DNA from: an uncultured virus (IMG/VR IMGVR_UViG_3300033075_000331)
Lineage: Duplodnaviria; Heunggongvirae; Uroviricota; Caudoviricetes
Virus record (IMG/VR): IMGVR_UViG_3300033075_000331
Direction: 5' to 3' (one strand)
DNA: 64,000 nt
The notes under the pieces are model-generated. The model worked only from the letters and a program-made list of their open reading frames with translations. It was not told where the DNA came from and did not search any database. The position numbers and the translations under genes are program-made. Below are positions 1 through 55,396 of the stretch, in pieces; the stretch's first letter is position 1; the number at the start of each line of letters is the position of its first letter.

Positions 1-993
1 ATATCGGTATCCATGAAGTCCCGTATTGACCGTAACACCATCCTTGACAAATTCGAGTGTTTGTGATGCACCATACCATTGCGATCCCAAGTTGAATCGT
101 TGAATGTCATCAATGTTGACGTCGTAATGCCCCTGTAGTCGATTGTAATAGAGTGTAACGTTGCTGGTAAGGGAATTACTCAGCTTCGACGTATACAGCC
201 CTGAGACGAAGCTCTGGGCAAATCGATCATTTTCCAGAGTGGAAAGGGGATTGTGCGCCGGATTCTTTTTGATTTCGCTTAACGGTGAGGGTGCCCACGC
301 AAGTTCATTCTGCGTCCATCCTGTAAAAGCAACGACGCGAGCCATGGACTTCGACCAAAGATAGTCCGATACCACAAACGCGGACCATGAGCGATTATCG
401 GAGTGGTCACGAAAACCGGGAACGCGCTGACTAGTGGAACGAACGAATGTGGCAAGCGGTCCAGACTTGGCCGTATATTCGGTGCCAATAAACTGGTTGT
501 AATTGTAATCGATTGCTCGACCTGTGTTGTGAGGCACGACCGTTTCAAAGTCAATCGCGCCCGCATACGAGGTATTTCCATATGACGTTGAACCCACCCC
601 ACGTTGAATCTGCATCGACTTGACGACGTGTGAGAAGTCAGCAAAATTGGCGAAATAGACGCCCTGATCTTCTGGCTCATTGAGAGGAACCCCATTGAGT
701 GTAAGATTCATACGAGATTGATCCAACCCGCGCAGTCGGAAATATGCGTAGCCGTTGTATGCGCCATTCTCGGAATATGCCGTAATTGATGGCGTAGCAG
801 TTAGCAACAATGGCATGTCCTGACTCATATCAACGTGGTCCAAGTCGCTAGCCAAATTGACTGACTTTTTGGTGATAGGAGATACCTTGGCGGATCGCAC
901 ACCATCGACCACGATCTTGACGGTCTTGAGAGTATCTTCCTGAGCAAATGCAGGAGTTGCGATCAATAGGAGACTACAAAGTAGGAGTTTCAT
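1..993 (-). CDS. TonB-dependent outer-membrane receptor (N-terminal 331 aa; runs off the window edge)
   Basis: Manual translation, not in the ORF track. ATG at 993 overlaps the TGA of the upstream ORF (ATGA) and the frame is open to position 1. Signal peptide MKLLLCSLLLIATPAFA, then plug-domain motifs GYAYFRLRGLDQSRMNLTLNGVPLNEPEDQGVYFANFADF and MQIQRGVGSTSYGNTSYAGAIDFET, followed by beta-strand-like sequence. Confidence 0.9.
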   Translation of the reverse strand, partial: MKLLLCSLLLIATPAFAQEDTLKTVKIVVDGVRSAKVSPITKKSVNLASDLDHVDMSQDMPLLLTATPSITAYSENGAYNGYAYFRLRGLDQSRMNLTLNGVPLNEPEDQGVYFANFADFSHVVKSMQIQRGVGSTSYGNTSYAGAIDFETVVPHNTGRAIDYNYNQFIGTEYTAKSGPLATFVRSTSQRVPGFRDHSDNRSWSAFVVSDYLWSKSMARVVAFTGWTQNELAWAPSPLSEIKKNPAHNPLSTLENDRFAQSFVSGLYTSKLSNSLTSNVTLYYNRLQGHYDVNIDDIQRFNLGSQWYGASQTLEFVKDGVTVNTGLHGYRY

Positions 994-1379
994 CGTTTGG
1001 TTGTGGTAATGTCTTTGAAAATGTATGTCTTGACCGGAGGTAGCCATTCATACTCTGGTGTGTTGGTATTATCCTTTTTTCGTTGGTCATTGCACGTTGC
1101 ACATTGCCGTGTAAGATCGGCACCACGATCCACGCCGTCGATGAGAAGGTACAATTCCAATAAATGGCCAGCGTCACATTCATACTGCGTACTATGATAT
1201 GCCACGTGATAATGTACGTTTCCATCAGCATCAAAAAAATTCATTGGGGGAATGATGTTAAATTCCTGCCTAAAGAAAACATAGGAATTCACTCCATCCT
1301 TTGCACATGTTGGACACTTGCCCTCCGGGGGCATATCGACCCCGGAGGCTGTTGTGTCTTTCGTCGTAATATCGCTCAT
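990..1379 (-). CDS. hypothetical Cys/His-rich (putative Zn-binding) protein
   Basis: CPTC, YECDAGH and CATC motifs; abuts nadV and overlaps the TBDT start. Confidence 0.6.
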   Translation of the reverse strand: MSDITTKDTTASGVDMPPEGKCPTCAKDGVNSYVFFRQEFNIIPPMNFFDADGNVHYHVAYHSTQYECDAGHLLELYLLIDGVDRGADLTRQCATCNDQRKKDNTNTPEYEWLPPVKTYIFKDITTTKR

Positions 1380-2798
1380 TTACCACTCAACGGTGTGAAG
1401 ATTATCTACCGGGATTTCTGCGCGAGCACGAATTTCATCAAACGTGGTCTCGCCAATCGATTCACCATTGCGATATACCAGCTTGAGAATGTTCTCACCC
1501 GGAGTGCTCGCATCGACTGTCGTGAGAACGCCCGAATCATCGTACATCAGCTTTAAACGACCAGCCTTGGAACGCTTACCCGCCGAGTCCGTGATGGGGT
1601 CTTTACGGAAGTCATATCGAACACCCTTGATCACGTAGCTGGATGCCTTGATCGCAAACTTCTGCGTGTCACGATTGACTTGCTGTAGGAGTGCGCCGCC
1701 CATACCGAAGGCGATGTTGTCACCAGACCACTTACGAGCTTCAAAGGCTTCAAGAATCGCACGAACCGAGTTGAGATTGATACCATCACCCTGAATGATT
1801 CGCACGTGGTTGAGCACCTTGTATCCCTTGCTATTGACCGTGTGCCCGAAGGACTTATCAAGCGTTTCGATAAGCTGCACGCACACCGTCACCGGATCGC
1901 CAGAGTCAGGACGAACCACAAGCACCTTGTTATTGAGGTTGACTACCTTGTTTCTCAAGGTTCCGCCCCAATAGGATTCGGCAGCACGCCAGAGGTTGTA
2001 CGTATCCGACACACAAGCGATGGCCGGAAAATTCGGATTTTGACCGAACGTATCCAAGAACCTCTCCATCTGTGACTCTTCTCCCGCTTCACCCTTAGCA
2101 CACATGATGCTATGTTCAGTAGCCGGGATCGAAAATCCAGCCATATCGCAGTTGTAATATTCGGAAGCCGCCTCAAGAGCAATCATAGTGTCGGTGCCCA
2201 TGAAGTTGACCAAATGGGCCATACCGCCAATTTCTGCGGATTCTTCTGAGGAAACTCCGCGATATCCGAAATCATGAAGCTTAAACTGGATGAGTTCGGG
2301 AGTTCCCGTCTTCACCAAATTAGCAAGAATGATTTTCTTGATTTCTCGTGAAAGCGTGGCGACGGTGATGGGATACCAAACCTTGAGAAGTAACGTCTCA
2401 AACCAGTTGGTAATCCACTGACAATTGTCATCGGTACCTTCGTATGTGGCGAGTACGTTTCGGTTTGGAATAACCATACCTTCCGGCGCGGCATAGATTT
2501 CCAATGGAATGCGACCGTCGAGTTGATTGACGATATATTCCCATCCCTGACGATTGAAGACCGTACCATCACTAAAGTGCTTGGCCGCGCGCTCAGCAGC
2601 GTAATCGACCATTTCCTGCGTAATGCGCGTGCTCAGATATCGCTTGAGATAATACTGCAAGCCGAACATGACCACTTCGGGAAACGCGCCACCACGAGAT
2701 TCCAGATAGGAATATACGCGCTGTGTGCCTTCGGGGTATGCGGGCCAGTGTGTGACCTTGTAGCTGTCTGTCCGGGTGAGAAATCTCTTATCAGTCAT
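1380..2798 (-). CDS. nadV: nicotinamide phosphoribosyltransferase (NAMPT)
   Basis: TDSYKVTH, LHDFGYRGVSSEESA, SIPATEHS, VSDTY, VVRPDSGDP, IIQGDG and FGMGGALLQ..NRDTQKFA motifs. Confidence 0.95.
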   Translation of the reverse strand: MTDKRFLTRTDSYKVTHWPAYPEGTQRVYSYLESRGGAFPEVVMFGLQYYLKRYLSTRITQEMVDYAAERAAKHFSDGTVFNRQGWEYIVNQLDGRIPLEIYAAPEGMVIPNRNVLATYEGTDDNCQWITNWFETLLLKVWYPITVATLSREIKKIILANLVKTGTPELIQFKLHDFGYRGVSSEESAEIGGMAHLVNFMGTDTMIALEAASEYYNCDMAGFSIPATEHSIMCAKGEAGEESQMERFLDTFGQNPNFPAIACVSDTYNLWRAAESYWGGTLRNKVVNLNNKVLVVRPDSGDPVTVCVQLIETLDKSFGHTVNSKGYKVLNHVRIIQGDGINLNSVRAILEAFEARKWSGDNIAFGMGGALLQQVNRDTQKFAIKASSYVIKGVRYDFRKDPITDSAGKRSKAGRLKLMYDDSGVLTTVDASTPGENILKLVYRNGESIGETTFDEIRARAEIPVDNLHTVEW

Positions 2799-2800
2799 AA

Positions 2801-3712
2801 TTAGATTTTCGTCTTGATGAGGTTAATAGCGTCAACAACGAGGGGACGGTGAAGCGTGACAACAAGAGTATCGAGGTTATCCAGTACGTAATCTACATCA
2901 TACCACTGTGCAATCGCAAGATCGTCTCCACCATGCACACGTCCTGCGAAATATCGAGCGAGAAACAGCGTGGTACTGTGGGAAACTCCCTTAGCTCCCC
3001 GAATACGCCAATCGTTGATAAGGTATTCCTTAACATACTCCGGTGGGGCTTCCAAGTCAATCCCCATTTCCTCTTGAAGTTCTCGACGCGCCGTATCAAT
3101 CAGCAACTCGTCAGGCTCGCGGAATCCTCCTGCGAGGCGCCATTCATCTTCGTTGATACGACGTCCAAGGGCAATCTGTAACTTCGGCAAATCGCGCCAC
3201 AGCGCCACGTCCACCGTGTTATACGTGCGATGGGTCAGAGTCTGATACGCATGGATGACTCCGCTGCGAAATTGGTCAGTGTTGATGTACGTATGCGCCA
3301 AATTATCACGCACTCTAGTGGCTTCAACGTCATCATACCCGAACGTCAATTCTTCGGTTGGATAATTACCGAAATAATGGGGAATAAACCCGAATCGACC
3401 AGAATAGAGCGTAGCACCATCCGGAGAATACAGGCGAATGAATTCATCAACCTTATCCGACCACTCGATATCACTCTTGCAATCGAAAAGGCGCACGAAA
3501 ATGGCGTTCGGAAATAGCTCACGAATCATACCAGTGCGGATTTCGTAGCTTAGAGGATTTGTTGCGGTCGCGGGAGTCTTGCGGTCGCCAATCATGACGA
3601 TCATCTTCTCATGACGATGATCGACGGTGGATAAAAGAGCAAGGTGTCCCGCATGGAGCGTTGGCACCTGAAATCGTCCGATAACTACACCAGCCGTAGG
3701 AAGTTTGGTCAT
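2801..3712 (-). CDS. bifunctional NMN adenylyltransferase / ADP-ribose Nudix hydrolase (NadM-Nudix, NatV-like)
   Basis: IGRFQVPTLHAGH (HxGH) motif, NPLSYEIR, and Nudix box AGGFREPDELLIDTARRELQEEMG. Start moved to ATG 3712 (ATGA overlap with the upstream ORF). Confidence 0.9.
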   Translation of the reverse strand: MTKLPTAGVVIGRFQVPTLHAGHLALLSTVDHRHEKMIVMIGDRKTPATATNPLSYEIRTGMIRELFPNAIFVRLFDCKSDIEWSDKVDEFIRLYSPDGATLYSGRFGFIPHYFGNYPTEELTFGYDDVEATRVRDNLAHTYINTDQFRSGVIHAYQTLTHRTYNTVDVALWRDLPKLQIALGRRINEDEWRLAGGFREPDELLIDTARRELQEEMGIDLEAPPEYVKEYLINDWRIRGAKGVSHSTTLFLARYFAGRVHGGDDLAIAQWYDVDYVLDNLDTLVVTLHRPLVVDAINLIKTKI

Positions 3713-3963
3713 TTGATCTTTTTGAGAATAGTGAATACTGCAATATCCAAAGGAGTAGCTGTTCGCAACACGTCGGTTTCGACTCCTCGATTTGATCCCC
3801 AATCTAAGTGGTATTTGATTTTACCATCTTCTATCGCATACCACTCATCATGAGGTAGATACGGATTTAATTCGATCATATTAAGCAGTCGAATTTTTAC
3901 GATCCTATCCACTTCGTCGTCGCTGATGTTAGCGGTTGACTGCGTTGTGAAGTTTATCTTCAT
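3709..3963 (-). CDS. hypothetical protein
   Basis: 84 aa ORF whose stop overlaps the start of the NMNAT-Nudix gene. Confidence 0.6.
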   Translation of the reverse strand: MKINFTTQSTANISDDEVDRIVKIRLLNMIELNPYLPHDEWYAIEDGKIKYHLDWGSNRGVETDVLRTATPLDIAVFTILKKIK

Positions 3964-3976
3964 ATGTGAATATGGC

Positions 3977-4330
3977 TCAAGTAGTGTGATATGTCAAGGT
4001 CCAGTTATCCCATTTCTCATCGTTTTCATGTTCCCAATCAAGTACCCACTTTTCATAAGCCATTTGATCATCGAGCATTGCTTTTACAAGCGTATCAAAG
4101 TGCCAACGATGTAAGGGATCGCTATCATCGCTCGCACTGCTAGAAATCAATGTGAGTGCTCTCGTAATCCGGTCATCAACTGACGCATTTTCAAAATAAT
4201 CAGTAGGATAAATGACGCGTTTGCCATCCGATGTACGAATTATCCATTCTCCGGGGGCAGGATAGCGAACGATACCAGACCAATCGATTAGATATTTCAA
4301 GCAGGAAGAATCGTTGGGAAAATCATTCAT
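3977..4330 (-). CDS. hypothetical protein
   Basis: ORF; probable start MNDFPND at 4330, in a TGATG overlap with the upstream small ORF. Confidence 0.55.
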   Translation of the reverse strand: MNDFPNDSSCLKYLIDWSGIVRYPAPGEWIIRTSDGKRVIYPTDYFENASVDDRITRALTLISSSASDDSDPLHRWHFDTLVKAMLDDQMAYEKWVLDWEHENDEKWDNWTLTYHTT

Positions 4331-6587: not shown

Positions 6588-6616
6588 AGTGTCTGATGGT
6601 TAGGATGTGGTGTAAT

Positions 6617-7084
6617 CTAACCAGTGGACCGGGCTGTGTCAAGTAGCTTTTCCACAAACTTCTTGGTTTTCGCATGTAACAGGATTTTACTGGTATTTTC
6701 CGCATACCACTCGTTCGCGGTGTCGGGTGAACGTCCCAGTGCCACCGCCACCCCTCGCCAATCGGCCACCATTTCACGAGCATATTTCTCTGGCATTTCT
6801 AGGACACGAGGAGACCGAATATCGTTCAGCGTAACCCAATATTGCCAGTGGTGTGGGTTTTTTCTAATGTGACTTGCCCACGCTAGTGAAAAATCATTCT
6901 GAATTTTCTGTGTGCGTTCTGTTTCGTAAAAGAATCGAGCATACGCTATGAATTCAGAAGGTGAGAGTTTGCTCATGTCATGAACAAGACCCTGCCATAT
7001 TCCTACTCCCAATTTACGAGCTTCGCGATAGACTGCAATTTTATGTACTAATACGTATTTAAAATATTGCCAGTATTTCTTCAT
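6617..7084 (-). CDS. DUF5662-like HD-fold protein
   Basis: H..HDMSKLSPSEF, NPHHWQYW and MPEKYAREMVADW motifs. Confidence 0.75.
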   Translation of the reverse strand: MKKYWQYFKYVLVHKIAVYREARKLGVGIWQGLVHDMSKLSPSEFIAYARFFYETERTQKIQNDFSLAWASHIRKNPHHWQYWVTLNDIRSPRVLEMPEKYAREMVADWRGVAVALGRSPDTANEWYAENTSKILLHAKTKKFVEKLLDTARSTG

Positions 7085-11636: not shown

Positions 11637-12575
11637 TTATGCGCTAAGTTTGTCTGCTAAGTCTACGATCTTGTCGTGCCACACCAACCCGTCTCTCCAT
11701 CGCTGCGGGATTGCCTCATATCCGTAGTGCGCGCCCGCTAGCTGCCCATAGACGGCACCAATCGTGTCCGCGTCACCACCGAGACTTAGCACCTTTGTCA
11801 TGCCGTCTTCGAAGGTGTCGGTATGATAAAACGCCCATAAAGCACATTCTAATGTGTCTACGCAATAACCAGACGGCTTCAAATCGTGTTCGATGTGCTC
11901 AACACCACCGAATGAATACGACCGAGTGCTGCTTTCGGTTTTGTTTCGATACTCCCCATTGATAATATGGTCGAATTCATTACCCAAATTCAACCAATCA
12001 CCGGAATGGCGAATTTCAGTTTTTGTACAACCATCCAACGTATCCACTAGCATTGTACCAAATAATGCCGTACATTCAATTGCAACGGGTGCTCCATGAG
12101 TTAGTTTACAAGACTCCCTACATTCATCAACTATCTGATGCATCGTTCTATCATCATGTGCTGCTCCATGAATGACCACGGGTGCCAAACGCATGATACA
12201 CCCATTACCAGCACTATGTTCGTCGGTAGGTGGCTTGATCTGACCCGTAACACGATATGTCATCAGAGACTTAAGTGTGGTCCCACCAATACCCACGGCT
12301 TTACCAGTACATGAATTATGACCTTCGGTAAGCCACTTGACAAAGATATCCATTTGTTGTTCGAGGGTCGCATCTGCTAAAATACCCTCTGCGAGACACA
12401 ATGCCTGAGCCGTGTCATCAGTCCAACCACCAATGGGAATCTTCCATGGACCCGTATCCATGTAATCAGTGACAATTGTACCACGTTCGCCAAATTCAAT
12501 TGGAGCACCGAGCGCATCCCCAACCGCTAGTCCTACCATTGCACCACGAGCCCTACTTTGTAATGAAATTGTCAT
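11637..12575 (-). CDS. ADP-ribosylglycohydrolase (DraG/ARH family)
   Basis: GLAVGDALGAPIEF, WTDDT, AGNGCIMRLAP, TH and GGDADTIGAVYGQLAGA motifs. Confidence 0.93.
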   Translation of the reverse strand: MTISLQSRARGAMVGLAVGDALGAPIEFGERGTIVTDYMDTGPWKIPIGGWTDDTAQALCLAEGILADATLEQQMDIFVKWLTEGHNSCTGKAVGIGGTTLKSLMTYRVTGQIKPPTDEHSAGNGCIMRLAPVVIHGAAHDDRTMHQIVDECRESCKLTHGAPVAIECTALFGTMLVDTLDGCTKTEIRHSGDWLNLGNEFDHIINGEYRNKTESSTRSYSFGGVEHIEHDLKPSGYCVDTLECALWAFYHTDTFEDGMTKVLSLGGDADTIGAVYGQLAGAHYGYEAIPQRWRDGLVWHDKIVDLADKLSA

Positions 12576-14470: not shown

Positions 14471-14893
14471 TTAGGGGTAGTAGACATGAACATACTTGTT
14501 TTCGTCGTTCAGCGCAAGGGGGATGAGCCACTTTAGATTCGGAACGATTTCCAACTCACTCATCGAATATATCGATGATACTTCAACGATACATACTTCT
14601 TCTTCTGTTGTGGTAATTACATTCGTAAATTCGGAAGATGATGCTTTGAATACATGAACGTTATATTGCGGAGATTCTAACACAGCAACGTCATCCCATT
14701 CGGTAATGTTAACGTCAGTTTCTTCCTTGAATTCACGAATCATAGCATCAACAGGAGCAACATCGGTAGTTTCGATCTTACCACCAACTCCATTATACCG
14801 ACCTTTTTGCCAATCGGGTTTCGTTTTTCGAATGAGAATGACCCACTCTCGATCTGGTGAAAAGAGAAACCCAACTACATAATGGATTTTCAT
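14471..14893 (-). CDS. Nudix hydrolase (MutT-like)
   Basis: NGVGGKIE...AMIREFKEET Nudix box. Confidence 0.88.
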   Translation of the reverse strand: MKIHYVVGFLFSPDREWVILIRKTKPDWQKGRYNGVGGKIETTDVAPVDAMIREFKEETDVNITEWDDVAVLESPQYNVHVFKASSSEFTNVITTTEEEVCIVEVSSIYSMSELEIVPNLKWLIPLALNDENKYVHVYYP

Positions 14894-15153
14894 GCGTGTT
14901 TCTTTATCTCAAGTTCAAGCTGTGCAAGAGGAATGACACCTTGAAATCGCTCCACTTCAACGCCCTCTTTCAATAGCACGAATGTAGGAACTCCACGAAT
15001 GTCATATTGATCGACCAAATCGGTGCGTTCATCAACATTCACTTTCTCAACAACAGCGATACCTTCCACTTCTTTTTCTAAACGTGGAAGAATCTTCAAT
15101 ATTTGCTGACATGGTTTACAATAGTCCGCATAAAAGTCCAATACTGTAATCAT
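14890..15153 (-). CDS. thioredoxin
   Basis: DFYADYCKPC and the GVPTF cis-Pro motif. Confidence 0.9.
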   Translation of the reverse strand: MITVLDFYADYCKPCQQILKILPRLEKEVEGIAVVEKVNVDERTDLVDQYDIRGVPTFVLLKEGVEVERFQGVIPLAQLELEIKKHA

Positions 15154-15752
15154 TTTGACGTCTCCAATTTTATTACTTTTCTACACAATTCTATAAATTC
15201 TTTACTACTCAGCTTATGCTTTGCAAAATTCACTTGTTTTGTAACAAACTGAACATTTCCTTCGATATAACCAACATTATTATCTATTCTATCTAATGAT
15301 GCGTTGGTTTCGGCTTTATATTTGCGGGCTTCACTAAAATTAATCGATTCTCCGGTCAATGCACACATCCCATGTTGTTGTTTGAACAGATTATCTAAAT
15401 ATTCAATGGTCAACTCAAATGCAATTCCGCGACGGATTGCATTTTTGGCTACATTGTTAAAATATCTGGCGGGTATTACACCATATCCTTTCCAATTTGG
15501 ATTTCCATTAAAGGAAACTATATGGCATCCGCATCCTCTAGTATGCCCATGCAACAACTTACCAGCCTCTACATACGATGTAGTTCCACATGAACATTTT
15601 ACATGAATATGTGCGCAACCATATTCTTGTTTGCCTTTTTTTAATCGAACAACGGTTGGATTTATAACAGTCCAATTACCATATGAGGTTCCCGCAGAAA
15701 ACACACCATCAAATTTACTTTTTCTAATTACACGATGCTTGTATGTCCTCAT
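15150..15752 (-). CDS. HNH-type (His-Me) homing endonuclease
   Basis: KCSCG...GCGC N-domain; CALTG and ASLDRIDNNVGYIEGNVQFV...VN..K; AT-rich DNA. Confidence 0.75.
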   Translation of the reverse strand: MRTYKHRVIRKSKFDGVFSAGTSYGNWTVINPTVVRLKKGKQEYGCAHIHVKCSCGTTSYVEAGKLLHGHTRGCGCHIVSFNGNPNWKGYGVIPARYFNNVAKNAIRRGIAFELTIEYLDNLFKQQHGMCALTGESINFSEARKYKAETNASLDRIDNNVGYIEGNVQFVTKQVNFAKHKLSSKEFIELCRKVIKLETSK

Positions 15753-16066
15753 TTTTTCTTTCTCTGATAGTTGGTAATGAGACGACACCAATTCAAGAAT
15801 TCTTTCTCGGGGAGGGTATATTTGATCGTATTAACTCGCTTATGTACCCATTGACAATTGGTCTTGGTATAGCCCTTGGTATTGTCGCGACGATCTAGTG
15901 ATGCGGTGTAATCATCTAGTGAGATTTTCTTACCAGAGTATGGACACACGCCACCTTGCTTTTTATAGAGACGACGCAAGAATGCCGCCGTCACAGTCAC
16001 TCGCAACCCGCGCTGTTTTGCACCACGCTTCATCGCAAGAAAATACCGATCAAATCTATCCTTCAT
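15749..16066 (-). CDS. short HNH-type endonuclease, paralogous to the adjacent gene
   Basis: CPYSG and ASLDRRDNTKGYTKTNCQWVHKRVN motifs. Confidence 0.7.
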   Translation of the reverse strand: MKDRFDRYFLAMKRGAKQRGLRVTVTAAFLRRLYKKQGGVCPYSGKKISLDDYTASLDRRDNTKGYTKTNCQWVHKRVNTIKYTLPEKEFLNWCRLITNYQRKKK

Positions 16067-16619
16067 GTGGGAATGTCTCTTTATAGACCGCAGTAATCGC
16101 TTTGCGCCCTGCCGAATTAAGATCGCGTGTTCCTATTCCTGCGAAATCTTCGGTGAGTTTTGGAGTATATTCGTGCACCAACTGAAATCGTTTTTCACCG
16201 GGCTCTCGTAAATACCAATCTTCTGTCGGTTGATCAAATAACCACACGGATTTACCATTGTTTACCGCCATTTGTACTGCCCATCCGGTTCCACCATCTA
16301 CGATATCAAGTTCGTTACTCGCAAATTGTCCCACTGCGTAAATGGCAGTTGAGTTCTTGACTTGGAACCAGTTACGAGCGAGCAATTTCTTTACATACGG
16401 TGCTAAGCGATCCAAGGGACGTTTGAGAGTCTTTGCCGCGATCACAACATGTGCAAATCCTTCATCCAAATCATCGTCGGACAATATACATGGATTTTGT
16501 GAATAATGTGAATGTCCTTGGAAAGAGTAGGCAATGGTCAGGACGTTATTCATCCATCCTTGGTTTTCCCATTCCATATCCGCCCCTTGCGCCCCACCAC
16601 TATGATTCGTGTATGTCAT
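16056..16619 (-). CDS. SLOG/DprA-YspA-like nucleotide-binding protein
   Basis: HSGGAQGAD, RNWFQV, GGTGWAVQMA and FAGIGTR motifs; start MTYTNH overlapping the nrdJ stop. Confidence 0.6.
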   Translation of the reverse strand: MTYTNHSGGAQGADMEWENQGWMNNVLTIAYSFQGHSHYSQNPCILSDDDLDEGFAHVVIAAKTLKRPLDRLAPYVKKLLARNWFQVKNSTAIYAVGQFASNELDIVDGGTGWAVQMAVNNGKSVWLFDQPTEDWYLREPGEKRFQLVHEYTPKLTEDFAGIGTRDLNSAGRKAITAVYKETFPHEG

Positions 16620-18469
16620 ATAATTGTACAACCATCTGGCCCAGCACACGCCAGTTCACCTTGTAAATTGGTATCGTCTTTCAATTCGATCACCTTGGTT
16701 AAATCGACTTCATGTAATGTCTTGAGCAATTCGTAATACGTGGTCTTTGACGTATCCTCGAAAGGCGCTTGTACGTATGTGTGGTCTGAGAATGGGAATA
16801 CGGAGAGCGCCGTGAAATTGTTACGATTCTTCCACATCCACTCGCCAACGGGTTTCCATTCGTCTTCCTTGATGGAAATTGTCGCACTAACGTTGTTGAC
16901 ATTTTCACCCTTGCGATGCCCCGGTGCCACCCATTCGCTCCATACCCGCGCAACTCGTGACAATAGGTCGAGTGCAGATTCGTCACGCGTCACCGCTCCC
17001 GCAGGGGCCTTTTGTGGAATGGAAATGATCGACGTTGTGCTTGGCTTGAAGTAATCATCTTCCAACAAATCGGCATGGTGTTCGGCCAAGTAGTGATAGA
17101 TCGATTCGTTCTTGTTAACGCGCAGACGACGAATGTAATAGTCATTGTGCCACGCATGAATGCCGCTGGACGTTCCAAGTACCAACGATGATGTACCTTC
17201 GGGCTTTACCGTTGTCGTGCGTGCTGCCTTGTTAATGCCAATCAAAGCCGCAACACGTTCATTCTCAGACTTCACAACTTCTGCCGCATCGGCCAAGTTT
17301 AACTCCATGACTTTACCCGATGCAATGCCCGTCATGCTCACCCCGATCAATGCTTCCTTTTCGGTGGTTTCTTTCCATACATCACGAAGATAGTGGAAGT
17401 TGGTATATCCTGCTTGTAATGTTCCGATAAATGCCGCTGCCTTGGCTCTTGCATTCAATTCTTCCTGTGTTGTTACATCGGACACATTGATAGTAGTCAA
17501 ATTACAGAATTGGAATGGACGCAATGAGATTTCGGCACATGGATTGAGACCCCATTCCTTATCATTCGTGAAAAAGAATCCGGGCTCACCAGAATTGGAT
17601 AACTCGATCTTTTTCCACAAGTCCAAGAACGTTGCCTTGTCGATCTTGTGACGGACAATGACTGCTGAGTTGTTTGAACGATGTAGATGTGGATTCTGAT
17701 CAAGATACTCACCATATTTACATGTCAACATGGCTTCATCTGTCAAATCGAACAGCGCAATCATAGCTGAGCGACGAATTCCACCAGATAGTACAGCATC
17801 TGCGATATAGCAATTGATGTGGTGGACTTCCAATGGTGTTAGACGCTCACCGTTTTTCTTACGGTCAAAAATCTTACGAACGTTGTGCAGACAGTCCTTC
17901 AATGGTTCAGGACCGGGAGCCTTTCCACCGGACGTGACCAACATCGCGCCCTTTGGACGAATATCAGAGAAATCGAAGTTTGGTGATGGCTTGCCTTGGA
18001 AGTATGAGCGCACCAATGCTTTAATAGCATCTGCCCATCCTTCAATGCTATCAGCGATCAAATAGCGACGTGATTTGGTAGGAACACGAATTTCTGGTAA
18101 TTGATCGACGTGGTGTGTTTGGACAGAATATCCCACACCTACACCAGACAATAGCAAAAACATCAATTCTGAGAAACATTCTGGCGCGTTCATTGGCAAG
18201 AATGAACAGTTGTAAATACGAGCCGGATTCAATTCGATTGGTTTACCACCAAACTGCATGGATCGCATTGAAGGTAATATCCTATGATCATAGACGAACT
18301 TGTATGCATCTTCAATATCAGATGCAAGATGTGGATATTTCTTCAAATGCATCGCCTTGTTGCGATCTACGATTTCGCTCCACACTTCTCGACGTTGTAG
18401 CTCGGGAATGTATTTCGCATACTTCATATGAATCGTAAGCGAAGACAATATGTTACTGCTAATTTCCAT
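16616..18469 (-). CDS. nrdJ: class II (adenosylcobalamin-dependent) ribonucleotide reductase
   Basis: YNCSF, GGIRRSA, GEPG, NPCAEI, FCNL and TTVKPEGT motifs; C-terminal CAGPDGC redox pair; no beta subunit in the window. Confidence 0.92.
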   Translation of the reverse strand: MEISSNILSSLTIHMKYAKYIPELQRREVWSEIVDRNKAMHLKKYPHLASDIEDAYKFVYDHRILPSMRSMQFGGKPIELNPARIYNCSFLPMNAPECFSELMFLLLSGVGVGYSVQTHHVDQLPEIRVPTKSRRYLIADSIEGWADAIKALVRSYFQGKPSPNFDFSDIRPKGAMLVTSGGKAPGPEPLKDCLHNVRKIFDRKKNGERLTPLEVHHINCYIADAVLSGGIRRSAMIALFDLTDEAMLTCKYGEYLDQNPHLHRSNNSAVIVRHKIDKATFLDLWKKIELSNSGEPGFFFTNDKEWGLNPCAEISLRPFQFCNLTTINVSDVTTQEELNARAKAAAFIGTLQAGYTNFHYLRDVWKETTEKEALIGVSMTGIASGKVMELNLADAAEVVKSENERVAALIGINKAARTTTVKPEGTSSLVLGTSSGIHAWHNDYYIRRLRVNKNESIYHYLAEHHADLLEDDYFKPSTTSIISIPQKAPAGAVTRDESALDLLSRVARVWSEWVAPGHRKGENVNNVSATISIKEDEWKPVGEWMWKNRNNFTALSVFPFSDHTYVQAPFEDTSKTTYYELLKTLHEVDLTKVIELKDDTNLQGELACAGPDGCTII

Positions 18470-18773
18470 TGTGCTTCTCCAAATATAATATCATGTTTTG
18501 TAAAATGGTTATATCTTCTTTAATGAGTCCAAGAACAGAATTACACTGTCTACATAGAAGTTTTCGTACGCTGTTCGTGTGGTGATTATGATCGACACAT
18601 AAAACCTTCGGTGTATTCCCACATAAGTAACATTTTCCTTGTTGCGTCTCAACCATAGCTAAAAACTCTTCTTCACTAAGACCATATCTCCACATTTTGA
18701 ATTTCTTGTAAGATAGGGAGAAATACATATCAAGCGGTATATGCACTATGGGTGCTTTTGTAAAAACTGTCAT
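18459..18773 (-). CDS. endonuclease VII-like protein
   Basis: YGLSEEEF, CYLC, VDHNH and VRKLLCRQCN motifs; AT-rich. Confidence 0.8.
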   Translation of the reverse strand: MTVFTKAPIVHIPLDMYFSLSYKKFKMWRYGLSEEEFLAMVETQQGKCYLCGNTPKVLCVDHNHHTNSVRKLLCRQCNSVLGLIKEDITILQNMILYLEKHNGN

Positions 18774-34110: not shown

Positions 34111-34861
34111 ACGTAATCCCGATTGGGACGGTCTCCTCTGAGGTATGCTCGCAGTTCTGACACGAGAACGTGAACCGAAGGTCAATGTCTGGCATAATCT
34201 TGCGTCCGTACTCTCTGAAAGCCCTCGCATCACGCGTAGGAAGCGATTCTACGAACTTTCGGATATCATGTGGGTCCGTACTACCATCCACCGAGATAAT
34301 CGCTCTACGCATACGTGTCGTGACTTCTGGTGTGATATCGGACTTAAGTACCCGCTTGAGCCCGTCCAGTTCGGCTTGGATCGCCTTCTCGTCGGACTGT
34401 GTAAGTAATCTAAATAATACCGTCTTTTTTGTCAAGGGGGTTACGAAGACGAATTCGTTCTTGCCCTTGAGTTCGGCTGGGAATGGTACTTCCTTGTCCT
34501 TAAGCTCTTGTAAATCGATGGTGACGCTGTTCTTGGCTTCACATGCGGGGCATTCCATCGTCACTTCGTAATTACGCCCATATGCAAGGATACGAGCCGC
34601 CACGAAGATCGCGTTCTTGTCGCCGGATAGGATTTCAGAATATTTCACCCCTTTAGTCGCGATGACTGCTTCAAGGAATTTATCGACGACTGTTCCGCGT
34701 TGAATCAGGTTTGCCGACGTCAGAATATCTTCATGATACGCTGTTGGCGAATATAAGTCGATTTTTCCGCTAGAAAGTGGGTGCGTTGGTGGATAAAACC
34801 AACCACGTGACGGTAAATCGATTGTTTCCTTGTGCATTAGGGACTGTTCTACTTCTGCCAT
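34085..34861 (-). CDS. gp26-like baseplate hub / tail assembly chaperone
   Basis: LPSRGWFY, EDILT, GDKNAIFVAARILAYG and two CxxC motifs; ends FLWPD. Confidence 0.75.
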   Translation of the reverse strand: MAEVEQSLMHKETIDLPSRGWFYPPTHPLSSGKIDLYSPTAYHEDILTSANLIQRGTVVDKFLEAVIATKGVKYSEILSGDKNAIFVAARILAYGRNYEVTMECPACEAKNSVTIDLQELKDKEVPFPAELKGKNEFVFVTPLTKKTVLFRLLTQSDEKAIQAELDGLKRVLKSDITPEVTTRMRRAIISVDGSTDPHDIRKFVESLPTRDARAFREYGRKIMPDIDLRFTFSCQNCEHTSEETVPIGITFLWPDTGL

Positions 34862-52425: not shown

Positions 52426-52914
52426 CTAATAATTGAGCACGCAGTAGTCGGGCTGTAATGTAAGTGAAATTTCCAAAGGATCATCCGTGCTCCAATCCGC
52501 ATCACCCCAGTTGATTTCGGTGATAATACAGCCCTTCAAAATCCACTCTTCAACCTTGTCACCGACCGGACCAAGCATGTTGATGATAATGTCTTTCTTG
52601 TAAAAGTCCGCATATCCGTCACGACCTGTTACTGATTCGTGGTGGAGACGAAGCCATTCAATGACGGCTTGTGCACCCGATGGCGCAACAGGATCATATA
52701 ATGACAACTGCACGGTTCCCCACTTGGACTTCCCCTTAACGTAACGCGAGACGTTGATGTGTGGAAGTTCCTTTTGTTCTTGTTGAATGGTAGGACGAGC
52801 TATCTTGCGAATCAAATATGAAGGAATACCGTCAATATACATGAGGTATCGATTCTTCATCTTAGGTTCGAATTGTGTGAAAAATATCTCGTTTTCTGCT
52901 ACTAGATTTGCCAT
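52426..52914 (-). CDS. tail tube protein (gp19-like)
   Basis: FEPK.KNRY, YDPVAPSGAQAV.EW, GPVGDKVEEW; directly after the sheath gene. Confidence 0.88.
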   Translation of the reverse strand: MANLVAENEIFFTQFEPKMKNRYLMYIDGIPSYLIRKIARPTIQQEQKELPHINVSRYVKGKSKWGTVQLSLYDPVAPSGAQAVIEWLRLHHESVTGRDGYADFYKKDIIINMLGPVGDKVEEWILKGCIITEINWGDADWSTDDPLEISLTLQPDYCVLNY

Positions 52915-53004
52915 GTATATTCTCCAAAATGGTCCTGCGACCAAAATGTCTCGCTTATACATATCATGGTTCGCAGATTAATTTCAACTTTTATCGGTAC
53001 AATA

Positions 53005-53047
53005 GAAGCGCCCATCACGAATAAGGTGTATCCATGATGGGCGCTTC
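53005..53047 (-). terminator. stem-loop after the sheath gene (terminator or processing site)
   Basis: GAAGCGCCCATCA...TGATGGGCGCTTC stem with only a weak U-tract. Confidence 0.55.
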
Positions 53048-53059
53048 CAAATCATTCAC

Positions 53060-55396
53060 TTACGCCGGGAATGTAGCTCCGGTTGGAAGAATGTTGAAGT
53101 CAAGGGTGATGAATTCAGCAGTCTTCGCAGGTTGCAAGTACAACTGACCAACCAAGATGTTACGGTCAATAATGTCAGGAGTGTTGTTGCTTTCGTCCAT
53201 GATTACACGGAATGCATACAAACCGGAACGTTCTTGAACCGATGCGAGGTATGGGTTGACGATGGAGAGGAATCGGTTACGGGTTGCCTCGACATTCTGT
53301 TCGAAGACGAGATAACGCGACGTAGACGCAATGAACTTCTTCACGACGATCAAGAGACGACGAACGTTGATACGATCCAATGCGGATGCATTCTGTTGCA
53401 ACGTCTTCTGACCCCAAACCACGATGCCCTGTGCTGGGAATGACGCAATTGGGTTAACGCGACCTTCATACAAATCGTTACGGTTCGATTGATCGAGACG
53501 TGAACGTACTTGCAACGCTTCCCCAATACCACCACGATTCAATCCGGCTGGTGCATACCATTCGGCGGCTACACGATCATTGAACGCATAGACCCCCGGC
53601 ATGACAACAGAAGGTGGAACCCAAATGGTCTTGTTTGATTCCTTATCACGAACCTTTACCCATGGGTGATAGGTTCCGGCATAGCTTGTATCCAAATCTT
53701 CAACTGCGTTGGTAGCTGCCGACACAGTAGCTCCAAGTACATCACCGTCGAGAATGTAGAAACAATCTCCTCGGTTTTCGCACATGTTGATACCTTCGGT
53801 CGCGACATACACGTGTTGACTGTAAACAACACCCGGCATTACAAGCAAGTTGATATCGAATGCATCAGGATTTGCCAATGCATCAATACCACGCTTGTAT
53901 GCTCGTGCACCATCGCTCGTGGAATCTGACAAATCAAATCCCATCGTGTTGCTGTTGGTGATCGACGCGCCAGTATACGTGAGACGCGCAGGGTTAAATC
54001 CATCGAATCCACCTTGGAATGGAACCGTGAACTTACGAAGTGATGTTGCGGTTGAACCAGTGATATCACCGTCAACTGCTGCAATTGTCGTAAGCAAGTC
54101 GAATCCACTGTCAGCCGTATTGATTGGCGTAATACCAACGTGAGCCGATGAACCTGATGGAATTGGAGCCAAATATGACAAGTTGGTATCTTCGTCAAAG
54201 TTGAATCCGTAGTACGTGCGATTGTTCGAAATTGCCGTAGTTGCGCCGACAGGAATGCTGTAGCGCGTCGTGACATATTCCGGTGCAGGAACATCTACAC
54301 GATTGATTGGCGGTGCCAACGGTGCAAATCCATATGGCAATGCTTCTACCGGGACCGCATCCGAGTTATCGTCCATTTCGATGTAAATGTACTGCGAGTT
54401 ATTTGGCCAATCGCCTTCCAAGTAAATGTCGCCATTTGCATCGATGATCGTACGAGCCGAGCCGATACGACGCGCAACATAGTTTGGAGACGTTGGGTCA
54501 AGTGTCAAGTTGTCGAATTGTTCCAAGACGTTGGTCTTTGCATCGGTATCGTCAAATGCACGAACCAACACAGAGAACGTACCATAATCACCCGCAACAG
54601 TGGCAGGGCGAATGGACGCAATAGAAATCTTGACATCCTTGTTTGCGGCATTACCATCGGAAAGCGTCCAGAACTTGAACAAGTTGAAACGCTGACTTCC
54701 GATCAATTGTGAACGGATGAATGGAGTTGCGGCATTGGAATATGTACCATATGTCGTGCCACTCAAGTTCAATTCACCAGTTGCCAATGCAAGATTGACC
54801 GAACCCGAGCCAACCAACGAACCAGAATTGAGAGTCGTTGCGGTTGGGAACACAGCATACACATATCCTTGCTGCGTGGTTTCTGGATCGGTTCCCAATA
54901 CTTTTGCGAAGTAGTTGGTGCTCGTTTCTACAACGGACAAGCCAGAATGCGTCACACTTCCTAATGCACCAGAGAGTGTCAAGGTGAAATTCGTTGGCGT
55001 ACCCGAAATAGAAGCTGTAGGCAATGTAACACCCACTTTGCTTGGGTGAATAAGTGCGAGGGTAGCGGGTACTGATCCAGCGGCGCCAGAAAGTGACAAC
55101 ACGACCGACTTTGCCGCAGTTGAGCTATATCCCCCAAGACCCAATACACGAACGATGGTTGCGCGTGATGCTTCCTGTAGGTAACTCTGCACAGCATATG
55201 GGGTGTACATATCAGGATCAGTTCCACCAAACTGTCTTGCAAACTCTTCCTGACTTTCTACAATAACTGGACGAAATGCTGGTCCCTTTTCAGTTGGACC
55301 AATAAATGCCGCTCCGATTTCCGCAATTCCTTGAGGAAGGAAGGACAAATCTCGCTCTTGGGTGAATACTCCGGGTGATACTAATCTTTCAGCCAT
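53060..55396 (-). CDS. contractile tail sheath protein (gp18-like)
   Basis: VSPGVFTQE.D, WYAPAGLNRG, LYEGRVNPI, WGQKTL, RINVRRL and P.KTAEFI motifs. Confidence 0.95.
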   Translation of the reverse strand: MAERLVSPGVFTQERDLSFLPQGIAEIGAAFIGPTEKGPAFRPVIVESQEEFARQFGGTDPDMYTPYAVQSYLQEASRATIVRVLGLGGYSSTAAKSVVLSLSGAAGSVPATLALIHPSKVGVTLPTASISGTPTNFTLTLSGALGSVTHSGLSVVETSTNYFAKVLGTDPETTQQGYVYAVFPTATTLNSGSLVGSGSVNLALATGELNLSGTTYGTYSNAATPFIRSQLIGSQRFNLFKFWTLSDGNAANKDVKISIASIRPATVAGDYGTFSVLVRAFDDTDAKTNVLEQFDNLTLDPTSPNYVARRIGSARTIIDANGDIYLEGDWPNNSQYIYIEMDDNSDAVPVEALPYGFAPLAPPINRVDVPAPEYVTTRYSIPVGATTAISNNRTYYGFNFDEDTNLSYLAPIPSGSSAHVGITPINTADSGFDLLTTIAAVDGDITGSTATSLRKFTVPFQGGFDGFNPARLTYTGASITNSNTMGFDLSDSTSDGARAYKRGIDALANPDAFDINLLVMPGVVYSQHVYVATEGINMCENRGDCFYILDGDVLGATVSAATNAVEDLDTSYAGTYHPWVKVRDKESNKTIWVPPSVVMPGVYAFNDRVAAEWYAPAGLNRGGIGEALQVRSRLDQSNRNDLYEGRVNPIASFPAQGIVVWGQKTLQQNASALDRINVRRLLIVVKKFIASTSRYLVFEQNVEATRNRFLSIVNPYLASVQERSGLYAFRVIMDESNNTPDIIDRNILVGQLYLQPAKTAEFITLDFNILPTGATFPA

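Follow-up and report, generated by a model that had tools for sequence, protein, structure and literature searches.

In the 64,000-nucleotide stretch analysed here (the window), taken from the record of the uncultured virus IMGVR_UViG_3300033075_000331, the minus strand of positions 1–3712 carries genes for a NMNAT-Nudix protein (NadM), a nicotinamide phosphoribosyltransferase (NAMPT, NadV), a short CxxC protein and the N-terminal part of a TonB-dependent transporter (TBDT). We interpret the cluster as an ordinary NARP2 pathway followed by a probable receptor for a precursor of nicotinamide adenine dinucleotide (NAD+). In its full form, to which we assign a probability of roughly two in three, this reading holds that the NARP2 enzymes and a NAD-type receptor make up a NAD+-supply region with uptake of the nicotinamide riboside type, and that pnuC and nadR lie just beyond the end of the contig or are supplied by the host; a diderm host, as the most likely setting, is part of the same joint estimate. 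A preliminary description of this DNA had proposed an operon for both uptake and rebuilding of NAD+, and the gene names that it gave agree with Pfam and NCBIfam.

The receptor and its family

The receptor gene (positions 1–993, minus strand) encodes 331 residues and has no stop codon. The fragment comprises a signal peptide, read by eye from a hydrophobic N-terminus ending in AFA-Q, a plug domain (PF07715, 41.2 bits, above the cut-off) and the first barrel strands. The ESM Atlas contains this 331-residue fragment letter for letter and a full-length copy was not found among the homologs of 581–2000 aa; hence the source contig (131,061 bp) apparently ends at window position 1, and the gene is apparently cut there with only its N-terminal half present. 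A related contig in run X3 reaches 311 nt past this position. The homologs number 365, the closest being 45–58% identical and full length, and a model of one full-length relative (P0002) gave a pLDDT of 91.7 and a TBDT fold, with a TM score of about 0.8 to TBDT structures. In the closest homolog, P0001 (774 aa), a lipoprotein gene seems to run on into the receptor, whose own signal peptide is near residue 122; the fusion is possibly a gene-calling merge.

Gene neighbourhoods were compiled for 193 receptor loci: 28 from IMG/VR, 80 each from metagenomes and genomes (the best of 320 and of at least 596 stretches, respectively) and 5 of the 24 INPHARED records. Flanks of 6 kb were taken for loci from genomes and of up to 10 kb for all others, and the neighbour seeds were checked against Pfam. 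The viral, metagenome and genome scans did not return the contig of the window or those of its seven closest relatives (P0001–P0007); identity across the whole fragment reached at most 42%.

These loci fell into two sets. With 54 short-flank loci dropped, 139 had at least 700 nt upstream and at least 1,600 nt downstream of the receptor; a full NadR, that is NMNAT plus kinase domains, without a thiamine pyrophosphate (TPP) riboswitch was present in 81, and a TPP riboswitch, detected with a profile built from 18 Rfam hits, without full NadR in 50 (26 with the kinase only and 24 with none), leaving 8 with neither. None of the 72 TPP loci lay near NAMPT, PncB, NadM, the NadR NMNAT domain, NadE, PncA or NrtR, and 90 of the 112 non-TPP loci had at least one of these. 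In the 31 viral loci that extend far enough downstream, full NadR was found in 28, PnuC in 23 and PncB in 6, with no instance of NAMPT or of a TPP riboswitch. On the strength of this split and of the viral counts we divide the family into a thiamine type and a NAD type, the phage copies being of the NAD type.

In the window itself there were no Rfam matches at all, nor any match by the TPP profile that found the 72 loci. An Rfam scan of 30 loci gave no cobalamin riboswitch. Of the vitamins that the preliminary description listed for uptake assays, thiamine has turned out to be a real rival to a NAD precursor as the receptor substrate; family context lends no support to vitamin B12, nor to iron. 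If NAD-type receptors regularly had a periplasmic nucleotidase as a neighbour, nicotinamide mononucleotide (NMN) or NAD+ would be favoured as the substrate; none was present in the 56 of 133 neighbour-family representatives that were scanned.

Residue 286 and classification of the receptor

The two types differ at the alignment column of Leu286. Leu occupies this column in 72 of 75 NadR-linked receptors from three groups (the others being two Gln and one Ile), whereas Ala, Gly or Thr stands there in all 64 TPP-linked receptors, whichever of the four groups they come from, and Leu in none. The window receptor has Leu, as do six of its seven closest relatives, the other having Ile. The use of a small residue as a mark of the thiamine type derives from these alignments and not from the literature. 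Ser304 is a second, weaker marker, present in 69 of 75 NadR-linked versus 6 of 64 TPP-linked receptors. In the P0002 model the equivalent residues, 294 and 314, are located on neighbouring strands (283–301 and 307–326), and strand register and side-chain alternation suggest that they would face each other on the lumen side of the barrel.

Phylogenetic trees placed the window receptor and P0001–P0007 in one clade (support 1.0 or 100). A classifier of 45 columns, trained without the sister group of this clade, scored the three NadR-linked members of that group at 28–36, its 15 TPP-linked members at −30 to +3 and the window clade at 13–29. The window receptor was also positive in all 16 leave-one-group-out settings. 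Based on Leu286, we consider it probable that the receptor is of the NAD type, and nicotinamide riboside is the most likely substrate as judged from family context. Tree placement was considered as a test of the substrate and set aside; it does not settle the question, since the sister group is mixed and deep branching depends on the method.

The NARP2 enzymes

The NMNAT-Nudix gene (2801–3712, minus strand; 303 aa) encodes both expected domains above their cut-offs (PF01467, 26.2 bits; PF00293, 36.7 bits), with HAGH at residues 20–23 and an intact Nudix box at 196–218. It matched the NadM-Nudix structures 2qjo (E 1e-6) and 2qjt (E 2e-6) in the PDB weakly, and it represents a short subtype with a two-residue insert before HxGH that scores far under the NCBIfam NadM-Nudix equivalog cut-offs (51 versus 449 bits) and below all NCBIfam NadM cut-offs. 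The subtype is common in phages, as evidenced by matches in 188 viral stretches; among the best 80 of these loci, NAMPT was nearby in 56 and a divergent 560-aa phosphoribosyltransferase in 18. The Nudix domain is likely to be an ADP-ribose pyrophosphatase, judging by its sequence.

The divergent phosphoribosyltransferase, about 25% identical to NAMPT, follows nadM in those 18 loci (for example L205:1189–2868, L207, L199 and L206). A Prs-like gene is sometimes near it, and its candidate substrate is that of Nampt, that of Namat or another.

The NAMPT gene (1380–2798, minus strand; 472 aa) was recognized with much higher scores: PF18127 and PF04095 were both matched, NF006629 scored 574 bits against a cut-off of 405, phrog_448 was matched at E 4e-150, and NAMPTs in the PDB at E 4e-131 to 6e-120. 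The motifs DSYK (11), HDFGYRG (175), GTDT (201), PATEHS (225) and RPDSG (296) are present, which we take, from human NAMPT, to be the nicotinamide-binding and phospho-His motifs. The protein is 41–52% identical to phage proteins mostly annotated as NAMPT, and, judged by its NAMPT_N domain together with these PDB and phage matches, it probably belongs to the NadV clade rather than with PncB or Namat. The earlier view of the two enzymes as a NARP2-like pair is borne out by the agreement of families, motifs and adjacency, their activities being predicted; taken alone, the pair is, as far as sequence tells, an ordinary NARP2.

NARP2, exemplified by Nampt (NadV) and Nmnat (NatV) of Vibrio phage KVP40, is given in a preprint as occurring in about 1.1% of phages (bioRxiv 10.1101/2024.02.11.579819). 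The window resembles that system in its adjacent NAMPT and NMNAT-Nudix genes, intact motifs and lytic T4-like phage background. It differs in that the NMNAT-Nudix protein is short and divergent and an outer-membrane receptor follows; an anti-defence role here is predicted by analogy. For Adps, the partner enzyme of NARP1, no match resembling synthetases of phosphoribosyl pyrophosphate (PRPP) was found among the 54 open reading frames (ORFs) of the window or by tblastn with one Prs seed, this search being confined to the 64-kb window.

Recurrence of the join between NARP2 and the receptor

A synteny survey had been recommended in the preliminary description, and it showed that the adjacency recurs: NAMPT lies in the flank of 12 of the 193 receptor loci, and NadM as well in 7 of them. 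Since the receptor subfamily is linked to NAD salvage and relatives show the adjacency again, the proposal survives the two observations on which it could have failed, namely clustering of the receptor with an unrelated substrate and an arrangement unique to the window. As for the proposed coupling of the receptor to NAD supply, the tie of its subfamily to NAD salvage stands, but the conserved partners are PnuC and NadR and not NAMPT and NMNAT.

The gene order of the window is found in a bacterial locus (L104) that reads nrtR-nadM-nadV-TBDT-pnuC-nadR-prs, in which 5 nt separate nadV from the TBDT gene and there is no CxxC gene. Similar clusters in L060, L071, L101 and L127 (a Niastella metagenome-assembled genome) include genes for ADP-ribose enzymes (macro, NADAR, PARG, ARH and Tpt1) and have no pnuC in the flank. 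These operons share the order nadM-nadV-TBDT with the window, and differ from it by NrtR and the ADP-ribose enzymes and by the lack of the CxxC ORF. Moreover, the NadM and receptor of the window fall in other clades, which argues against a recent capture of the block from such operons. No printed description of bacterial nrtR-nadM-nadV-TBDT-pnuC-nadR operons was found in the literature searched.

A phage-like locus (L041) has nadM-nadV, three short genes, and then TBDT, pnuC and nadR; two of its gene families are held in common with IMG/VR phage loci, and its NAMPT is 78% identical to that of megaphage LR756502, where nadM-nadV is located about 17 kb from TBDT-pnuC-nadR. Receptor P0005 has the same source as P0123, the best homolog of NadM; that source has a contig count of 3 and a longest contig of 240,110 bp, which suggests that they belong to one genome, though not that they are adjacent. 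Vibrio phage D480, which encodes NAMPT as well as PnuC, is a precedent for NARP2 and PnuC in a single phage.

Other arrangements were encountered in phages. In the phage loci L021–L025, L075 and L192 the receptor is beside genes of the nicotinate route (pncA, pncB and nadE) and not beside NAMPT; with the NAMPT loci, this makes two or more intracellular NAD routes to which the receptor has been coupled. Lak megaphages (L193:8007–10061 and L194) carry a NAD-type receptor followed 7–9 kb downstream by nadR and pnuC, whose order is reversed; they also have a NAMPT-like gene at another site, which in Lak-A1 is in two pieces (L198 and L200). A 238.8-kb phage rated complete (L222:9995–16929) has nadM-nadV, DUF4406, a Gcw_chp (PF09694) protein, pnuC and nadR, and no receptor of the window family; its Gcw_chp protein has a signal-peptide-like start and would be a different putative outer-membrane channel serving the same combination of NARP2 and NARP3.

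Proposed mechanism and alternatives

In the NAD+-supply reading, NAMPT would convert nicotinamide and PRPP to NMN, which the NMNAT domain would adenylate to NAD+, and the Nudix domain would split ADP-ribose into AMP and ribose-5-phosphate, the latter feeding PRPP. The receptor, powered by TonB of the host, would concentrate nicotinamide riboside, or a nucleotide yielding it, in the periplasm; PnuC would then import the riboside and NadR would phosphorylate it, so that both routes would meet at NMN. TonB/ExbBD had no match among the 54 ORFs of the window. PnuC and full NadR were likewise absent from the 64 kb; they are predicted to be encoded past the contig end, where their position is expected, or else to be provided by the host. 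By analogy with NARP2 and NARP3, the purpose would be to keep up NAD+ against NAD-degrading defences or the demands of replication.

We hold only tentatively, and at somewhat less than even odds, to a broader proposal, in which one transcript would extend from NARP2 to a receptor-extended NARP3 (nadM-nadV-TBDT-pnuC-nadR), the phage would recycle nicotinamide and also gather nicotinamide riboside through the two membranes of the host, and the receptor would be the first recognizable TBDT for a pyridine nucleoside or nucleotide, whether in phages or in bacteria. A single lumen-facing Leu-to-small change would then separate such receptors from thiamine receptors and would have been switched more than once.

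Several observations weigh against the NAD+-supply reading. Near-duplicates are many among the receptor loci, so the counts overstate independence. When whole groups were left out and only the columns covered by the window were used, 6 of 8 cytTPP and 7 of 15 gemTPP receptors fell on the NAD side with 15 columns, as did all 15 gemTPP receptors with 30 columns, and P0001 was near zero at 15 columns. In the trees, the group next to the window clade is rich in Gemmatimonadota and contains both kinds of loci, 3 linked to NadR and 15 to TPP; FastTree and IQ-TREE disagree on the deeper nodes. From the enzyme side, a direct link between NARP2 and the receptor is rare in phages: none of the 80 viral nadM loci had a receptor within 10 kb, and, in a search with a positive control, none of 48 whole viral records, 13 of them near-complete, contained one. 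A further record with both genes far apart, G001, is not among the 48, since the receptor loci had already led to it. Upstream of P0001 there is another gene than in the window, the window ends before any gene downstream of its receptor, and the scans added no downstream context from P0001–P0007. Lastly, no member of the NadR-linked subfamily with a tested substrate was found in the literature searched.

A first alternative is that the receptor is an OMthi-like thiamine receptor from a Gemmatimonadota-type host which lost its riboswitch and stands beside NARP2 only as phage metabolic genes cluster. The family presumably includes BT2390 of Bacteroides. Transport of thiamine by BT2390 has genetic support (PMC5613172), and a phage would not need a riboswitch, in keeping with this alternative and with the 15 riboswitch loci of the sister group. 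We nevertheless regard it as unlikely, because Leu286 is found in none of the TPP-linked receptors, the viral loci have full NadR in 28 of 31 cases and never the riboswitch, and NAD genes such as those beside the window receptor never neighbour a TPP locus.

An equally improbable alternative is that the receptor is of the NAD type but works with NARP2 alone: nicotinamide riboside, nicotinamide, NMN or NAD+ would be taken in, host enzymes would release nicotinamide, and NAMPT would use it. The placement of nadV only 390 nt before the receptor is consistent with such a route, as are flanks without pnuC, which exist with NAMPT (L060, L071, L101 and L127) and with PncB (L021–L025). Every one of these loci, however, retains full NadR, and only 3 of the 31 viral loci are without it nearby; moreover, nicotinamide is small enough to need no TonB receptor.

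Slightly less probable still is a non-nutritional receptor, which would alter the surface or tie up TonB against superinfecting phages, or one that imports B12 for the B12-dependent reductase encoded at 16616–18469. In its favour, outer-membrane proteins of huge phages have been proposed in a preprint to interfere at the level of receptors (10.64898/2026.10.24.761521), and in Lak phages the receptor stands 7–9 kb from nadR and pnuC; but the TBDT-pnuC-nadR linkage recurs across phages and bacteria, the cobalamin riboswitch is missing from the scanned loci, and BtuB ranked 31 and not top among the structural matches of the P0002 model, in a search that does not discriminate substrates.

Relation to known systems

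The preliminary description knew of no account of NAMPT and NMNAT coupled to an outer-membrane transporter that scavenges external precursors. No description of a TonB-dependent receptor for a NAD precursor was found in the open literature searched, which did not cover subscription papers; that a phage can take up a NAD precursor from outside, however, has been published as NARP3 (PMC13464706). According to that paper, NARP3 of phage TrudiRoth consists of two genes, encoding PnuC (Bas30_87) and NadR (Bas30_86), and occurs mostly in enterobacterial phages; the terms 'TonB', 'outer membrane' and 'porin' are absent from its main text. The likeness is that a phage imports a NAD precursor and that relatives of the window receptor directly precede pnuC and nadR, whereas the published system has two genes in mostly enterobacterial phages, and no pnuC or nadR is visible in the window.

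Genes for 'nicotinamide mononucleotide transport', the Pfam name of PnuC, are stated in the huge-phage preprint to adjoin some outer-membrane proteins of 10–22 strands, and the same preprint describes transcription of TonB receptors in Lak phages (10.64898/2026.10.24.761521). The receptor of LR745206 is called SusC in a further paper, which also treats Mar_Mega_1 (PMC9723777). Both LR745206 and the Lak phages encode the receptor family of the window; their copies have been annotated as SusC for carbohydrate uptake or without a substrate, whereas the gene context described here points to NAD precursors. The OMthi (BT2390)-pnuT-tnr3 system of Bacteroides is similar in combining a receptor, a Pnu channel and a trapping kinase, and our searches place TPP loci in the same receptor family; the window differs by the lack of a TPP riboswitch, by Leu in place of a small residue at 286 and by its NAD-gene neighbours. 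The accessible sections of a study of NrtR regulons (PMC5343134) mention no receptor in them.

What is new here is the join of the receptor to NARP2 together with Leu286 as the proposed specificity residue. If the reading is true, a widespread subfamily of receptors, whose members now go by 'iron complex receptor' or SusC and occur also in Lak and other megaphages, would gain a substrate, an outer-membrane step would be added to the NAD+ counter-defence of phages, and Leu286 would provide a one-residue handle on specificity for vitamin B1 versus B3.

The CxxC protein and gene spacing

The ORF between nadV and the receptor gene (990–1379, minus strand; 129 aa) encodes a protein with the pattern CxxC...HxHxxxH...CxxxH...CxxC. 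It had no match in Pfam, NCBIfam or PHROG, was a singleton at 90% clustering, and yielded ESM Atlas leads below 0.9. One real homolog, P0180, is 29% identical over 101 aa; since it keeps every Cys and His, the protein is real and probably metal-binding. Two further candidates, P0178 and P0179, were rejected as repeat artefacts. The gene was absent from the 188 receptor loci and 80 viral nadM loci tested, and unrelated small ORFs are often found between TBDT, pnuC and nadR in phages. A role as a regulator or accessory factor of the NAD genes, as once suggested, was abandoned: the protein belongs to no DNA-binding family, does not recur, has a homolog for which there is no locus, and nothing ties it to NAD. 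It is probably a passenger ORF, an unrelated insertion.

All four genes run in the same direction on the minus strand, as first described, with a gap of 2 nt between nadM and nadV, of 0 nt between nadV and the CxxC ORF, and an overlap of 4 nt between the latter and the TBDT gene. The tight gaps are real but do not exceed the background: across the window, neighbouring minus-strand ORFs lie 10 nt or less apart in 38 of 61 cases, with one run of 15. Such spacing being normal in this phage, it was rejected as proof of an operon. An 84-aa ORF without a Pfam or PHROG family (3709–3963, minus strand) overlaps the start of nadM by 4 nt, so the tight gene run starts upstream of 3712, and this ORF is probably the first gene of the same run.

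A sigma-70-like promoter match (TTGACA-17-CATATT, 10 of 12 positions; 3969–3997, minus strand) ends 6 nt before that ORF and would thus give a leaderless message. It had the joint best score and is weak, 18 such sites being found versus 15.6 expected in shuffles. Three TTGACA-type matches (3969–3997, 6614–6642 and near 34435) are situated between genes or a short way upstream of gene starts.

The phage and its host

Pfam and PHROG matches identify a large T4-like myophage, with major capsid protein Gp23, tail sheath, family B polymerase, gp32, UvsX and a class II ribonucleotide reductase; minus-strand ORFs make up about 97% of the 64 kb. The reductase, assigned by Pfam as B12-dependent, is flanked by several endonuclease VII/HNH-like genes (15150–16066 and 18459–18773). 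With regard to the host, the cellular relatives nearest the receptor are of the Gemmatimonadota type and the best named homolog of NadM is from a Bacteroidales genome bin. A loose Shine-Dalgarno match preceded 10 of 38 genes, a count that has no chance control and was not used to assign the host.

A 96-kb fragment of a related phage (L251) has a tail sheath segment 74% identical to window positions 52426–55396 and carries nadM-nadV-nadE, with no receptor in the fragment. The window also encodes an ADP-ribosylglycohydrolase (Tri1/DraG-like; 11637–12575) and a stand-alone Nudix protein (14471–14893), 8–11 kb upstream of the NAD cluster, and ADP-ribosylglycohydrolase (ARH) genes are frequent in bacterial NAD-receptor operons.

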